DNA from: an uncultured Clostridia bacterium
Lineage (GTDB): Bacteria; Bacillota; Clostridia; TANB77; CAG-508
Assembly (NCBI GenBank): GCA_947630185.1
Contig: CANRGT010000009.1
Coordinates: forward strand, 4,996 to 68,995
DNA: 64,000 nt
Direction of reading: 5' to 3'
Positions 7,426-42,717 of the stretch are shown here, in pieces; the stretch's first letter is position 1, and every line of letters starts with the position of its first letter. Under the pieces are notes generated by a model. The model saw only the letters and a list, made by a program, of their open reading frames with translations, searched no databases and was not told where the DNA came from. Position numbers and translations under genes: made by a program.

Positions 7426-8019
7426 TTATCTTTTTATTTTTCGTGAAATGCTAAGTCCATCTCCTACTTCTAAAATTTTAGTTTCTAAATTAGGATTTTC
7501 AGTAATTTCACTTATATATTCTCTTAAATTTCTTACTGCTGTACGTTGTTTATGTTTGTTATAATCACTCATTACATAGCCTTTATATAAAACATTATCT
7601 GCTATAATTAGTCCATTTTCATTTAACATTCTCATAGCTTCTTTTAAGAAAAATGGATATTTGCCTTTTGCAGCATCAATAAATACAACATCATATTTTT
7701 CATTAAAGTTTGGTAAAAGTTCTACTGCATCTCCCTCATATATGTTAATTTTATTTTCTGCTTCTGCCCTTTTTATATTTTCTTTTGCTTCTTTTACCCT
7801 CTCAACATCTCTTTCTATTGTATCTATTTTTCCATTTTCACTTAAATATTTAGAAAAGCAGATGGCAGAATAGCCAACTGCTGTTCCTATTTCTAGTATT
7901 TTATTTGGTTTTTGTTCTTGTAATAATTTTTGTACTACTTCTAATGTATCATCCATGATAATTGGAATTTTGTCTTCTAATGCTTTTTGTTTTATTTTTT
8001 GAAGTTCTTTTTCGTTCAT
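7426..8019 (-). CDS. class I SAM-dependent O-methyltransferase (family 3, YrrM/TrmR-like)
   Basis: 197 aa. Contains ILEIGTAVGYS (SAM motif I) and VFIDAAKGKY. Confidence 0.8.
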   Translation of the reverse strand: MNEKELQKIKQKALEDKIPIIMDDTLEVVQKLLQEQKPNKILEIGTAVGYSAICFSKYLSENGKIDTIERDVERVKEAKENIKRAEAENKINIYEGDAVELLPNFNEKYDVVFIDAAKGKYPFFLKEAMRMLNENGLIIADNVLYKGYVMSDYNKHKQRTAVRNLREYISEITENPNLETKILEVGDGLSISRKIKR

Positions 8020-10378: not shown

Positions 10379-10410
10379 TTTTGCTTCCTCTTTTCTATTT
10401 TTTCTAAAAG

Positions 10411-10547
10411 TATAATATATCACAATAATGAACAATATAATTTTTGCGCCATGTCGCGCAGCGTTCAAGCGAAGCGCGTTTGGAGCAACATTTATGCCCA
10501 GACAGCAAGACATAAGAAAAAATTATATTGTTCATTTATATTATATT
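10411..10547 (+). repeat. GC-rich-core hairpin element, copy R1 (short variant)
   Basis: An 18-bp perfect arm ATGAACAATATAATTTTT (10428-10445) pairs with AAAAATTATATTGTTCAT (10518-10535). The arms flank the core GCGCAGCGTTCAAGCGAAGCGCGTTTGGAGCAAC...GACAGCAAG. Confidence 0.7.
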
Positions 10548-29388: not shown

Positions 29389-29402
29389 ATTATTAATAAA
29401 AT

Positions 29403-29557
29403 AAAAAGTAGTGACTTTAAAGCAGTACCGCGCAGCGTCCAAACGGAACGAAGTGAAGTGCGCTTGGAGCAACCAACATACTATGTAATAAATTGTATTT
29501 ATACAATTTATTACATAAGAGGTTGTGACAGCAAGGTACGCGTAAAGTCACTATTTT
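29403..29557 (+). repeat. GC-rich-core hairpin element, copy R3
   Basis: Outer stem TAGTGACTTTA/TAAAGTCACTA, inner stem GTACC/GGTAC. Core is GCGCAGCGTCCAAACGGAACGAAGTGAAGTGCGCTTGGAGCAACC. Apical hairpin is ATGTAATAAATTGTAT/ATACAATTTATTACAT. Confidence 0.75.
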
Positions 29558-29584
29558 TATTATATAATTATAATTAATTAGTAA

Positions 29585-30253
29585 TTACTTATCATTAGTA
29601 ACATCTCCACTACCACTTACTGAAATGGTTTCACCTAAATATGTTGGTAATGGTTTTATTATGCAATTAAGCCATTCTTTATCTCTTGCTAAAATTTCTC
29701 TTATTTCACGAAATACTTGTCCTGAATATGTTCGAGGATCAGATGGTACTCCATATGCTTCTACTCCTAAACTTTTAGCTATATATAATGCTCTATATAA
29801 ATGATATTCTTGTGTTACTATTATCATTTTTTTTATGCCGAAAATATCTCTTGCTCTATATATGCTTTCATAAGTGGAAAATCCTGCATGATCCATAAAA
29901 ATATCTTCTGAGTTTATTCCTTTTTGTATAGCAAAATTTTTCATAACATTTACTTCATCATATTCTTCTCTTCCATGGTCTCCACTCATAATTATTTTAG
30001 GAGATACTCCCTCATTATATAAAGAAATTCCCTCTAATAATCTATCTTCTAACATTGGACTTGGGCTATCACCCCAAATTCCTGCACCTAAAATGAGAAT
30101 GCAATCTACATTTTCTATTTTATTTGCATCTTCATGTGAAATTATATTTTCTTTGCTACTAAATATTACAAAAAAATTTATACCTAATATAAAAATTGAA
30201 ACTATAATTAACAAAACAACTAATATTATCATAATTTTTTTCCATCTTTCCAT
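29585..30253 (-). CDS. DUF218 / SanA-YdcF family protein
   Basis: Begins MERWKKIMIILVVLL (TM), then ILGAGIWGD...IMSGDHGREEYDEVNVM. An AAGGGGA site lies before ATG 30253. The ORF is open to 30346. Confidence 0.7.
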   Translation of the reverse strand: MERWKKIMIILVVLLIIVSIFILGINFFVIFSSKENIISHEDANKIENVDCILILGAGIWGDSPSPMLEDRLLEGISLYNEGVSPKIIMSGDHGREEYDEVNVMKNFAIQKGINSEDIFMDHAGFSTYESIYRARDIFGIKKMIIVTQEYHLYRALYIAKSLGVEAYGVPSDPRTYSGQVFREIREILARDKEWLNCIIKPLPTYLGETISVSGSGDVTNDK

Positions 30254-31952: not shown

Positions 31953-33206
31953 TTAATTTTTTACTTTTTCAGTTTCTGCTACTATTGAGTTAATATTTGC
32001 CCTGCCAACATGCTCAATTTTCTCCCAAGTAGTATCACGTTTAAATAAACATTTAAAGTTTATTAAAAGCCATGAGCCTAAAAATAATGGATAGCATAAT
32101 AAGCCTTTCATCATTGGTTTTATCGGCTTTTTATCTAATATCATAATTACTAGTGCTGTAAAAATTGGTAATAAGAAGGTTGGTATTATATATCTAAGTA
32201 CATTTATAGATAAATCCATACTTGTCATTCCTTCTCCAAGATACATAACAAAATTTAGTAGTAATAATACAAGTGTAGCTATAAACATTGGAATACTTCC
32301 AATAATATATAAAAATCCGTCAAAATTCATTATTGTTTTATTTTCTTTTACTGCTAGTAATAATGGCTTTGTATATTCTTTCATACATTGAATATGACCA
32401 ACTGTCCATCTAGTTCTTTGTTTCCAACTTTGTTTAAATCCTAAAGGTTGCTCATCATACACTATAGCATCAGTAGCCCAACCTAATTTTTTACCTTGAA
32501 TAATTCTTTTTAATGAAAATTCAATATCTTCTGTTAATGTTTTAGTCTTCCATCCATCTGGTTTTACAACATCAAATTTAACCATAAAACCCGTACCATT
32601 TATTAATGGTGATAAACCTATGTTATATCTTGCTAAATGATAAAAACGATTCATTGTCCAATAAAATATTGTATAGCCTGCTGTAATCCAGTTATCAGTA
32701 GGGTTTTTAATGTCTCTATATCCTTGAACAACTTCTTCACCTTGGCAAAGTTTTTTATTCATTTCTTTTATAAAGTTTTTATCTACTATATTATCTGCAT
32801 CAAATATACAAAATGCATCATATGGTGCATCTTCTGCTATTTTTTGCTCTAAAAACCAGTCTAGTGCATAACCTTTAGTTTTCTTTTCTGGATCAAATCT
32901 TTCATAAACTATCGCACCAGCTTTTCTTGCTATAAAAGCTGTATCATCTGTGCAGTTATCAGCAATTACATAAATGTCTAATAAATCTTTAGGATAATCT
33001 TGATTTTTTAAACTTTCAATCAATTCTGCTACTACATTTTCTTCATTATGTGCTGGTATTATTGCCATAAAACGATGATTTTTATTTACTAATAATGGTT
33101 TATCTTTTAATTTTACTAATGAGCAAATACTAATTGCTATTTGATAAAACCAGAATATTGTTATAATCCATACTAACGCTTGTTGTATGATGTATAAATA
33201 TTCCAT
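31953..33206 (-). CDS. processive family 2 glycosyltransferase (PgaC/IcaA / cellulose-synthase-like exopolysaccharide synthase)
   Basis: 417 aa. Motifs: IIPAHNEE, FDADN, TEDIEFS and QRTRWTVG (QxxRW). TM helices flank the catalytic domain. Confidence 0.8.
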   Translation of the reverse strand: MEYLYIIQQALVWIITIFWFYQIAISICSLVKLKDKPLLVNKNHRFMAIIPAHNEENVVAELIESLKNQDYPKDLLDIYVIADNCTDDTAFIARKAGAIVYERFDPEKKTKGYALDWFLEQKIAEDAPYDAFCIFDADNIVDKNFIKEMNKKLCQGEEVVQGYRDIKNPTDNWITAGYTIFYWTMNRFYHLARYNIGLSPLINGTGFMVKFDVVKPDGWKTKTLTEDIEFSLKRIIQGKKLGWATDAIVYDEQPLGFKQSWKQRTRWTVGHIQCMKEYTKPLLLAVKENKTIMNFDGFLYIIGSIPMFIATLVLLLLNFVMYLGEGMTSMDLSINVLRYIIPTFLLPIFTALVIMILDKKPIKPMMKGLLCYPLFLGSWLLINFKCLFKRDTTWEKIEHVGRANINSIVAETEKVKN

Positions 33207-33328
33207 TTTTGTTATTCCTTTCTAATTTTCTAACAACATCTATTATACTATGTTAAAAATTTTTTTGCAACTTTTATAATACAATTAATAAAAGTTTAAT
33301 AATTTATATTATTGCTTAAATTTATTAT

Positions 33329-33464
33329 TGCTGAAAAGTATTATAGTTTTTGCACCTTGCCCACGCAACCTTCAAATATAATAGATTGTAGGTTGCTCCA
33401 AGCGCACTTCGCTTACGCTTCGTTTGAACGCTACGCGGTGCTACAAACTATAATACTTTTCAGC
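33329..33464 (-). repeat. GC-rich-core hairpin element, copy R2 (inverted orientation)
   Basis: Perfect 20-bp arms GCTGAAAAGTATTATAGTTT/AAACTATAATACTTTTCAGC. The reverse complement carries GCACCGCGTAGCGTTCAAACGAAGCGTAAGCGAAGTGCGCTTGGAGCAACC...GGTTGCGTGGGCAAGGTGC. Confidence 0.75.
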
Positions 33465-33493
33465 TAAATAAAATATAATTTTCTTAAAATTAA

Positions 33494-35605
33494 TTAGTCT
33501 TCTCTAGCTTCTAAATCTTTCATGTTTAAGTTAATTCTTCCTTGGCTATCTATTTCAGAAACTTTTACTGTAACTTCGTCACCAATGCTTAATACATCTT
33601 CTACTTTTTCTACTCTTTTGCTTGAAATTTTAGAAATGTGTAATAATCCTTCGTTTCCTCCACCTAGGTCAATGAATGCTCCAAATGGCATAATTCTAAC
33701 AACTTTTCCTGTATAGATATTTCCAGCTTCTATAACTTTAGCTATATCTAAAATCATATCAAGTGCTTTTTTGCCACTTTCTGTGTCGTTTGAATATACA
33801 CATACTTTTCCGTCATCTGATATATCAATCTTAACACCAGTTTCATCAATAATTTTATTAATCATTTTTCCACCAGGTCCGATTACATCTTTAATCTTTT
33901 CTGTGCTAATTGTTGTCATCATAATTCTTGGTGCATATTTTGAAATGTCTTCTCTAGGTTTATTTATAACTGGTAGCATTACATTGTCTAAAATATAGTC
34001 TCTTGCTACTTTTGTTCTTTCAAAAGCTTCTTTTATAATATCATATGTTAGTCCATCTATTTTAATGTCTACTTGTATTGCAGTAATACCATCTTTTGTT
34101 CCACCAACTTTGAAATCCATATCTCCAAAGAAGTCTTCAATTCCTTGAATATCTGTAAGCATAATGTATCTATTAGGGTCATTTTTATCTGTAACTAATC
34201 CTGTTGAAATACCTGCTACTGGCTTTTTAATTGGAACTCCTGCATCCATTAAAGCAAGTGTACTTCCACAAATACTTGCTTGTGATGTTGAACCATTTGA
34301 AGAAAGTACTTCTGATACTACACGAATTGAGTATGGGAATTCATCTTCTGATGGAATTACTGGAACTAATGCTTTTTCTGCTAAAGCTCCATGTCCTATT
34401 TCTCTTCTACCTGGTCCACGAGATGTTCTTGCTTCTCCTACACTATATGGTGGGAAATTGTATTGATGCATATATCTTTTTGATTCTTCTTCATCTAAGC
34501 CATCTAATTCTTGTTCTTCACTTTTCATTCCAAGTGTTACAACTGACATTACTTGTGTTTGACCTCTTGTGAAAATTGCGCTTCCATGTACTCTTGGTAA
34601 AACACCTACTTCACAAGAAAGTGGTCTGATTTCGTCTATTTTTCTTCCGTCTGGGCGTTTATGTTCTTCTAATATCATTTGTCTTACACAAGCTTTTTCT
34701 AGGTCATGTATACTATTTGCAATATCTAATGCCTTTTCTGTAGCTACTTCTTCTCCATATTTTTCTGTATAATAATTGTTAATGTCTTCAGTTATTTTTT
34801 CAATATTTTCATCTCTTACAGTTTTATCTGTAGCTTGTACATCTTGATACATTCTATCTTTAAAGTTTGCTTCAATTTCTGCATATACTTCTGGGTCTGT
34901 TGCAAAAGATGGATATTCAAATTTAGGTTTTCCTATTTCTGCTTTAATATCAGAAATAAAGTTACAAATTTTCTTAATTTCTTCATGTGCAACTTTTATT
35001 GCTTCTAGCATTGTATCATTTGGTATTTCGTCTGCACCTGCTTCAATCATTGTAATTTTGTCTAATGTTCCTGCTACTGTTAAGTTTAATCTGCTTTTTT
35101 CTCTTTGTTCTAATGTTGGGTTTATAACAATTTGATTATCTACATAGCCTACATTTACTGCTGCTGTTGGTCCACCAAATGGAATATCTGAAATTGAAAG
35201 TGCTGCTGATGCACCAATCATAGCACATACTTCTGGGCTATTATCTGGTTCTACTGATAATACTGTTGCTATAACAACTGTGTCATTTCTAAAATCTTTT
35301 GGGAATAAAGGTCTTAAAGGTCTGTCTATTGCTCTTGAAGTTAGAATTGCTTTATCTGAAGGTTTACCTTCTCTTTTTGTAAAGCTTCCTGGAATTTTTC
35401 CAACTGCATATAGTTTTTCTTCATAATCTACTGATAATGGGAAAAAGTCTATTCCTTCCTTTGGTTCTTTTGCTGCTGTTACGTTTACCATAACAACTGT
35501 TTCTCCATAGCGTACTACAACGCTTCCATTTGCAAGTTCTGCAATTTTTCCTGTTTCTATTGATAGTTTTCTTCCTGCTAATTCTGTTTCATAAATTTTA
35601 AACAT
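33494..35605 (-). CDS. pnp: polyribonucleotide nucleotidyltransferase (PNPase)
   Basis: Begins MFKIYETELAGRKLSIETGKIAELANGS... Has two RNase PH domains plus KH and S1 domains. An AAGGAAG site lies before ATG 35605. The ORF is open to 35644. Confidence 0.95.
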   Translation of the reverse strand: MFKIYETELAGRKLSIETGKIAELANGSVVVRYGETVVMVNVTAAKEPKEGIDFFPLSVDYEEKLYAVGKIPGSFTKREGKPSDKAILTSRAIDRPLRPLFPKDFRNDTVVIATVLSVEPDNSPEVCAMIGASAALSISDIPFGGPTAAVNVGYVDNQIVINPTLEQREKSRLNLTVAGTLDKITMIEAGADEIPNDTMLEAIKVAHEEIKKICNFISDIKAEIGKPKFEYPSFATDPEVYAEIEANFKDRMYQDVQATDKTVRDENIEKITEDINNYYTEKYGEEVATEKALDIANSIHDLEKACVRQMILEEHKRPDGRKIDEIRPLSCEVGVLPRVHGSAIFTRGQTQVMSVVTLGMKSEEQELDGLDEEESKRYMHQYNFPPYSVGEARTSRGPGRREIGHGALAEKALVPVIPSEDEFPYSIRVVSEVLSSNGSTSQASICGSTLALMDAGVPIKKPVAGISTGLVTDKNDPNRYIMLTDIQGIEDFFGDMDFKVGGTKDGITAIQVDIKIDGLTYDIIKEAFERTKVARDYILDNVMLPVINKPREDISKYAPRIMMTTISTEKIKDVIGPGGKMINKIIDETGVKIDISDDGKVCVYSNDTESGKKALDMILDIAKVIEAGNIYTGKVVRIMPFGAFIDLGGGNEGLLHISKISSKRVEKVEDVLSIGDEVTVKVSEIDSQGRINLNMKDLEARED

Positions 35606-35720
35606 ATTTTTTTCTTCCTTTCTTGTTGGCAATTGTTCAATCATTTAAAATGTTTTTGCATGATTCAAACGCCAATTTTTTAAATTTATATTAATACAAC
35701 ACAAAATTAGCGTAACCTCT

Positions 35721-42550: not shown

Positions 42551-42717
42551 GCTAAAAATATTATGTTTTGTAAGTACCGCGTAGCGTTCAAACGAAGCGT
42601 AAGCGAAGTGCGCTTGGAGCAACCAACATACAAGTAGTAATAAATTGTTAAGTATTAACAATTTATTACATAATATGGTTGCGACAACAAGGTACTAAAA
42701 AACATAATATTTTTAGC
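42551..42717 (+). repeat. GC-rich-core hairpin element, copy R4 (longest, archetype)
   Basis: Perfect 19-bp arms GCTAAAAATATTATGTTTT/AAAACATAATATTTTTAGC, stem GTACC/GGTAC. Core is GCGTAGCGTTCAAACGAAGCGTAAGCGAAGTGCGCTTGGAGCAACC. Apical hairpin is GTAATAAATTGTTAA/TTAACAATTTATTAC. Right side is GGTTGCGACAACAAG. Confidence 0.75.

Follow-up and report, generated by a model that had tools for sequence, protein, structure and literature searches.

In the window, by which the whole analysed stretch of 64,000 nucleotides is meant, two full copies of a repeat, termed R2 and R4, form hairpins with perfectly paired outer arms. R2 (33330..33464, minus strand in the family orientation; match to the covariance model, CM R1, at G000:C9:38321-38462 with 139.8 bits) is situated between the stop of a pnp-like open reading frame (33494..35644, minus strand) and the start of the next open reading frame (31953..33206, minus strand). 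The left half of its outer arm P1, GCTGAAAAGTATTATAGTTT (33330..33349), and the right half, AAACTATAATACTTTTCAGC (33445..33464), are perfect 20-bp complements of each other and enclose an interior (33352..33441, minus strand) composed of the stem P2 (GCACC at 33352-33356 with GGTGC at 33437-33441), the stem P4 with a short AT loop (GCAACC at 33365-33370 with GGTTGC at 33391-33396) and a conserved asymmetric GC-rich core (33391-33438). R4 (42551..42717, plus strand; 146.5 bits with the covariance model) begins with the arm GCTAAAAATATTATGTTTT (42551-42569), ends with its exact reverse complement (42699-42717) to give 19 perfect pairs, and has its core at 42577-42624 and a long AT hairpin on P4. 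The coordinates bear out the original prediction of arms perfect at 20 and 19 bp; the R2 feature is real as well, with its start at 33330, the previously given position 33329 being 1 nt early.

Homology of the two copies, equally part of that prediction, is evident from an identical 48-nt core, CCGCGTAGCGTTCAAACGAAGCGTAAGCGAAGTGCGCTTGGAGCAACC, which the copies carry on opposite strands (0 matches in 100 shuffles). Given the composition of the window, 64 kb should contain about 0.002 inverted repeats that are perfect over 19 bp and lie within 250 nt, and R2 folds with -59.2 kcal/mol versus -32.3 kcal/mol in shuffles (z = -7.7), which together argue that the arms of R2 and R4 have not arisen by chance. 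The arm differences originally listed between the two copies (A to G, an inserted G, G to AG) do exist, but the list represents one among several equivalent alignments. As both homologous hairpins are perfect, all differences between R2 and R4 are mirrored by construction; the actual content of the observation is that homologous copies possess different arm sequences and that both are perfect.

R2 and R4 belong to a family of which the source genome (G000; 1.64 Mb, 27.6% GC, 60 contigs, 100% complete) holds about 35 copies, as found by a search of the whole genome with a covariance model built from 30 of its copies. Four copies are located in the window: besides R2 and R4, a short core variant at 10405..10540 (plus strand; arms 10427-10445 and 10518-10536) and a fourth copy at 29400..29561 (plus strand) with the arms AATAAAAAGTAGTGACTTT and AAAGTCACTATTTTTATT, which contain one bulged G. 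The family unit is a non-coding nested palindrome of 105-200 nt. Its AT-rich outer stem P1 of 16-25 bp occurs in about three arm subtypes (A, B and C), each common to several loci, with the loose consensus AAAATAT(T)A..TTT across copies. Inside P1 follow, in family orientation, a short linker, the 5-bp stem P2 (GCACC/GGTGC plus covarying versions), a GC-rich core of 45-55 nt that is conserved and restricted to the 5' side, P4 (TTG-GA-GCAACC ... GGTTGC-GA-CAA) closing an AT hairpin of 0-55 nt, and subsequently P2', an A-rich linker and P1'. The base of P4 carries an internal loop, symmetric and almost invariant, with tandem G.A, for example at window positions 42613-42624 with 42676-42690, and about half of the copies have a GTAG at the P1/P2 junction on the core side.

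Within the genus, 23 of the 51 genomes contain the family as detected by the covariance model, with 1-37 copies each, versus 0 of 16 genomes from four other families of the order, all genomes compared being metagenome-assembled genomes (MAGs), one per species. The richest relatives are G024, with 37 copies, and G016. G000, G024 and G016 alone carry a copy in the spacer in which R2 resides, between pnp and the glycosyltransferase gene (window 33207-33493); where both flanks were placed in further species of the genus, this spacer measures about 54-300 nt and no copy was detected in it. A 17-nt core pattern searched over genome contigs matched two 'Lapin' rabbit-gut Clostridia MAGs and one further MAG, although the pattern is too short and gave mostly chance matches in GC-rich genomes. 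Metagenome contigs scanned with the R2 flank and with the family core gave 0 matches each, and an exact-protein look-up of the gene adjoining R4 returned no record. Rfam 15 at the gathering threshold recognized solely tRNAs in the window, while a permissive Rfam scan of R4 produced only noise with E > 2. The R2/R4 family, found in Clostridia of the rabbit gut, is a small DNA repeat not described before; it is neither an Rfam RNA nor a canonical terminator nor a demonstrated inverton.

Among paralogues, the pairing of the stems is conserved far beyond the two copies in the window. In an alignment of 30 copies, 95.0% of 807 stem cells are standard pairs, compared with 73.9% upon shuffling of the partners and 33-45% upon sliding them. 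Five measures of covariation were calculated and 0 of 500 shuffles reach any of these. Two-sided changes occur in 22 of 27 pairs and amount to 164 cells in the 30 paralogues, versus 6 wobble and about 40 unpaired cells; arm differences are thus mostly mirrored also in this larger set of copies, whereby the covarying cells do not represent independent events as paralogues are kin by descent. Covariation of P2 and P4 among paralogues is strictly Watson-Crick. Conversion within the palindrome had been expected to leave the arms always perfect, even in old copies. Old and diverged copies are indeed still perfect, but about 7 of 30 copies possess one genuine internal P1 mismatch, with the others perfect over at least 16 bp.

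Arms and interiors of the paralogues have different histories, as their identities are uncorrelated (r = 0.13). Three copies with 100% identical interiors differ by a mirrored indel, A4 versus A5 in both arms, and pairing reaches 3-8 bp past the family consensus into locus-specific sequence. In G020, a more distant genome where the arms are mutually unalignable around a near-identical interior (loci L177-L186), 9 of 11 outer stems are nevertheless flawless over 17-24 bp; of the remaining two, one comprises 25 matches interrupted by two 1-nt gaps and the other is only 13 bp long. The arms in G020 resemble A-tract/stem/T-tract terminators. Ordinary-looking AT-rich terminator hairpins at C4:65321 and C3:58223 of G000 have stems like those of subtypes B and C (AAAGAACAATATA..., AAAATATAGTAAG...); local terminator stems and the arm consensus may have constraints, or an origin, in common.

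To follow individual loci, the copies of G024, G016, G020 and some other genomes were extracted with 500-nt flanks and placed on G000 by BLAST of the flanks, which in G024 and G016 are about 92-98% identical to those of G000. Mirrored changes were counted in eye-checked four-row MAFFT alignments (both arms, both genomes) of 33 orthologous occupied pairs of G000 versus G024 or G016, genomes whose flanks match those of G000 at about 96%. These contain 619 unchanged columns, 14 mirrored ones, 52 unmirrored ones, many of which lie at the fringe, and 3 mismatched in both genomes. Merging changes found repeatedly in G024 and G016 leaves nine unique mirrored events: two in R2 (G/T and G/A), two in R4, one each at C3:74833 and C13:34206 and three at C29:7127, which may be a replaced copy. 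The R2 arm reads GCTTAAAAATATTAT[C/A]GTTT in the orthologues of G024 and G016, two differences from R2 that are mirrored in the opposite arm, and the R4 orthologue in G024 (L117) similarly shows two mirrored arm changes. With 5.8% change per site, as observed, arms evolving independently would be expected to give 0.78 mirrored cells (P = 1.6e-13 for the 14 cells, 1.4e-7 for the nine events and 1.6e-4 for the six events left upon exclusion of C29:7127), with the understanding that the orthologue counts of G024 and G016 share branches and that events are few (9 mirrored, 12 flips). The R2 arm variant has no other occurrence in the genome, which indicates that it was made in place and was not imported from another copy. 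The arms of these repeats accordingly change in concert at a fixed locus, and the original alternative of selection on, or copying of, the hairpin is supported by these in situ events.

The manner of these changes speaks to the level at which they arise. Between orthologues, imperfect arms are found opposite perfect ones with a multi-base mirrored change at C13:34206, C7:36258, R2, R4 and C29:7127. Five of the nine mirrored changes in situ are transversions, and, since transversions cannot pass through G.U, this argues against an RNA signature in the mirrored changes. Likewise, transition-type mismatches read in the mRNA sense are as often G.U (9) as A.C (10, in the 93 copies with known gene context); pairing is strictly Watson-Crick and an RNA signature is absent. 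At L156 in G016 the outer part of the right arm repeats, in inverted form, left-flank sequence which the empty site of G000 also contains, as would be expected of an arm grown out of its surroundings. On the other hand, unmirrored unique events (41, about 18-20 of which are located inside well-paired stem) outnumber the nine mirrored ones, so that correction must be slow or partial. The inner nine pairs comprise 0 of 9 mirrored versus 13 of 43 unmirrored changes, a trend that is not significant (Fisher p = 0.09) and is compatible with fold-back copying of the distal part of the arm. Divergence between orthologues is 2-4% in the arms, 2-3% in the core and 5-8% in the adjacent 55-nt flanks, and the notion that arms evolve at the neutral rate was dropped on these figures; as arms and core diverge about half as much as the flanks, purifying selection on the whole element including the stem is possible.

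Of 36 orthologous comparisons, 12 show the asymmetric interior inverted in place (7 of the 21 with G024 and 5 of the 15 with G016), at 11 distinct loci of about 27. Flipped loci keep their flanks as well as the arms and the P4 hairpin that are peculiar to each of them. R4 is flipped in G024 (L117), while R2 is flipped in G016 (L159) and unflipped in G024; all five 'co' copies of G000, R2 included, are flipped in one relative. Mismatches of the inner arm travel with the core, as seen for position -5 of R2 in G016 and position -7 of C5:5693 in G024, whereas the outer-arm variant of C5:5693 remains with the flank. The exchange points consequently lie inside the arms, which is not what excision and re-insertion would produce. 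Assembly k-mers are typically longer than arms of 20-25 bp, and as a general matter an assembler is not expected to mistake one orientation of the segment between such arms for the other. The discordance between genomes of 0.33 equals that of two independent draws from an 80:20 equilibrium.

Whole elements are also gained and lost. The 136-nt segment at 10405-10540 is absent, arms included, from G024 and G016 (flanks 98% identical) and no target-site duplication was found at this site; the copy at about 29396-29585 is missing together with its arms from the same two genomes (flanks about 98% identical), and its junction displays only an ambiguous 4-nt ATTA repeat. Conversely, about 20 sites occupied in relatives are empty in G000. 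Some of these are clean absences, and many retain remnants in the form of a solo arm, a 5' or 3' half element or an arms-only hairpin. Half elements and solo arms at sites that are full in relatives thus point to imprecise deletion and not to clean excision. Truncated remnants can be seen in G000 at C22:1827-1918, C18:21374-21452, C15:20116-20183 and C19:16351-16406, with full copies in G024 or G016. Arms-only hairpins are located at C12:48264-48340 and C17:20541-20618 of G000, where relatives have the full element (L132/L161 and L140/L162); the former is a perfect hairpin identical to the arms of the element in G024 and G016, and one arms-only hairpin has a perfect 17-bp stem with the linker alone as loop. 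Such hairpins represent either loss of the interior leaving the palindrome or the state before insertion. Outside the copies, arm sequences occur only as chance matches, solo arms and arms-only hairpins, none of which adjoins a transposase gene in this draft MAG. The unique, terminator-like arms of G020 prompted the idea that pre-existing terminator stems receive the core, which was rejected for G000, as whole copies are absent at clean empty sites and arm subtypes are shared; the rejection holds for G000 only, the sole empty orthologous site found for G020 copies being in G045 and too diverged.

Copies are positioned 0-70 nt past stop codons, with 25 tandem, 8 convergent and 2 divergent contexts in G000. 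Where the context is tandem, the family strand runs antisense to the genes on either side at a ratio of 20:5 in G000 (p = 0.004), and the same bias is found in G024 (19:6), G016 (15:1) and G020 (5:1), counts that are not independent across genomes. The family strand equally coincides with the strand of negative GC skew in 30 of 35 G000 copies, the direction of transcription and that of replication being inseparable in these draft contigs, and its fold is more stable than that of its complement in 27-29 of 30 copies. From this orientation bias we infer that something strand-specific is either selected or mechanistically biased, and the bias could link hairpin-forming repeats to replication or to the biology of mRNA 3' ends. 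A canonical terminator, that is a GC-rich stem followed by a T run, is not present around R2 or R4, and promoter-like and terminator matches do not exceed shuffle expectation. In agreement with what had been stated at the outset, R2 and R4 are not two unrelated terminators but homologous family members, of which neither has a canonical terminator tail. Of the companion statement that they are not decaying transposon ends, 'decaying' can indeed be excluded, whereas transposon ends are possible for a repeat that is gained and lost.

With moderate confidence we attribute the matched arms to copying from arm to arm at the level of DNA, through template switching or conversion within the palindrome. 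One arm would repeatedly template the other so that both evolve in concert, be it by template switching during replication of the quasipalindrome, with fold-back of the nascent strand or a switch across the fork, or by short-tract conversion between the arms. Any mutation newly arisen in one of them would be either erased or copied to the other, which would create apparent compensation without selection for each pair. When both switch points are located inside the arms, the interior would become inverted in place, and arm copying could extend pairing outward into the flank and thereby lengthen the arms. The in-place inversion of the interior indicates that the arms interact as DNA. Flipping and arm correction would presumably have a common mechanism, and the enzymology would probably consist of polymerase template switching and not of recombination. 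Of the two options in the original prediction, copying is better supported than selection.

Alternatively, the hairpin itself might be selected, as RNA at the 3' end of the upstream mRNA, where it could act in 3'-end protection, as an RNase III site or as an atypical terminator, or as a single-stranded DNA substrate for a mobiliser; single mismatches would then be weakly deleterious and compensating second mutations would become fixed. The placement of the copies shortly past stop codons in mainly tandem contexts, the strong bias of orientation relative to genes, the slower evolution of the element than of its flanks and the strong covariation of P1, P2 and P4 agree with this proposal, and the literature on REPINs and bcr1 takes the same pattern as conservation of structure (PMC3116915, PMC3184786). 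However, wobble pairs are nearly absent, with G.U no commoner than A.C in the transcribed sense, over half of the changes compensated in situ are transversions, and flips in a third of orthologous comparisons would turn an RNA into its complement. Moreover, neither a canonical terminator nor an Rfam family was recognized, and pairing that continues into locus-specific flank is rarely produced by point mutation and selection, so that this explanation appears possible but unlikely. We judge it highly improbable that descent from master copies accounts for the pattern, each arm variant having arisen once and spread by transposition, with R2 and R4 derived from different perfect masters. Arm subtypes A, B and C that each occupy several loci, and whole copies, arms too, that one genome has and another lacks at sites with 98% identical flanks, are in line with such spread; orthologues at the same locus that differ by mirrored changes nevertheless contradict it for R2, R4, C3:74833 and C13:34206, no copy in the genome could have donated the R2 variant and identities of interiors and arms do not correlate.

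Inversion by a site-specific recombinase encoded in the genome, with the arms as inverted-repeat sites, must also be weighed. Arms would then be identical because strand exchange needs matched crossover regions and because flipping is useful. In-place inversion at 11 of about 27 loci, discordance between genomes as high as expected from two draws at an 80:20 equilibrium and the loose arm consensus suit such a scheme, as do the five tyrosine and three large serine recombinases of unassigned role in G000 and a weak outward promoter-like match in R4 (TTGCGA-18-CATAAT, 9/12). Arms that differ widely, and in G020 cannot be aligned, are however hard to fit to one sequence-specific recombinase, a small serine invertase of the Hin type was not found in G000, the numbers of promoter-like matches stay within shuffle expectation with none inside R2, and conservative site-specific exchange alone does not homogenise arms; we therefore hold this scheme to be distinctly improbable. 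Association with a Y1/RAYT transposase was rejected on the strength of its domain PF01797, which has 0 matches in G000, 0 in G024 and 1 in G016, while many genomes free of the repeat have one.

Arm-to-arm copying has published precedents. Template switching between the arms of inverted repeats makes the arms alike, lengthens them and turns the spacer around (PMC8604942); in bacterial orthologues it keeps inverted repeats perfect (PMC5941160), and it can create and maintain the stems of RNA hairpins, thereby mimicking compensatory hairpin evolution (PMC8794818). As in the Ripley model of quasipalindromes (PMC8604942, PMC5941160, PMC8794818, PMC7202029), imperfect arms are made perfect with several bases changed at once, arms are lengthened and the spacer is reversibly inverted; the effect depends on the direction of replication, and apparent compensatory substitutions in hairpins have been suggested to arise in this way. 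Published cases, though, concern single inverted repeats with spacers of a few bases, whereas here the process would act on a 35-copy family with a structured spacer of 65-140 nt, and fast enough for a third of orthologous copies to have flipped while their flanks diverged by about 4-8%.

Several families of small repeats resemble the R2/R4 family in part. REPINs (PMC3116915, PMC3337134) are likewise intergenic hairpin repeats of about 100 nt with tens of copies and vertical inheritance within a lineage, and their hairpin is kept by mirrored changes, reported as compensatory (PMC3116915). In contrast to the conserved REP sequences at both ends and the variable spacer of REPINs, the ends are here variable and one asymmetric core is conserved, and REPINs are mobilised by RAYT; identity with REPINs was rejected on the absence of RAYT and the one-sidedness of the conserved part. 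The bcr1 or group A repeats of the Bacillus cereus group, as outlined in PMC3184786 (citing Okstad 2004, Klevan 2007 and Kristoffersen 2011), are Firmicute intergenic elements of about 155 nt that are non-autonomous, vary between close strains and keep a branched hairpin by compensatory changes. Unlike the present family they have 5-bp flanking direct repeats, and in-place inversion is not among the properties given in that outline, the comparison being one of descriptions and not of sequences. Terminal inverted repeats, here the P1 arms of 16-25 bp, are shared with classical MITEs, an identity that was rejected as neither a target-site duplication, with none at one and the ambiguous ATTA at the other of two clean loci, nor, in this draft MAG, a parental insertion sequence was found. 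Invertons such as Hin, Fim and the Bacteroides Mpi system consist of short inverted repeats around an invertible promoter segment. In gut bacteria, these repeats similarly bracket a segment of 100-200 bp present in both orientations, whereas the family described here has no convincing internal promoter or evident invertase, its arms are not conserved and it is located at the 3' end of genes and not upstream of them. New with respect to those families, as far as the literature found goes, are the frequent in-place inversion, the decoupled histories of arms and interior, and the equilibrium of orientations.

When substitutions in a stem mirror each other, this is routinely read as proof that the RNA structure is functional. 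The R2/R4 family passes every control for covariation, yet its pattern most likely stems from copying of arms at the DNA level, which constitutes a warning for covariation-based discovery of RNAs in AT-rich genomes. On the other hand, the 35 loci per genome offer a natural system in which the correction of quasipalindromes and the inversion of their spacers can be measured outside of laboratory reporter genes, with flips, corrections, growth of arms and loss of interiors visible between close relatives. A more far-reaching and rather unlikely proposition is that the copies, dozens in number, serve at the 3' ends of genes as modules of fast and reversible DNA inversion, kept in a biased equilibrium of about 80:20 relative to transcription or replication, in which matched arms keep the element invertible. 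If so, the modules would form a multi-locus switch, independent of an enzyme or driven by an unknown one, that gives the upstream mRNA a different 3' end, or the lagging strand a different template, a phase variation of a kind not described for small bacterial repeats.

At L065, around position 7911 of CAKNIZ010000007.1 from a MAG designated 'uncultured Clostridium sp.', a short variant of the family retains the conserved core without the P4 hairpin and is bordered by an unrelated perfect 20-bp pair of arms (ACTTGTATATTTGAACTTCT). At C14:10377-10613 of G000, two copies are arranged in tandem with arms that are shared or abut each other.
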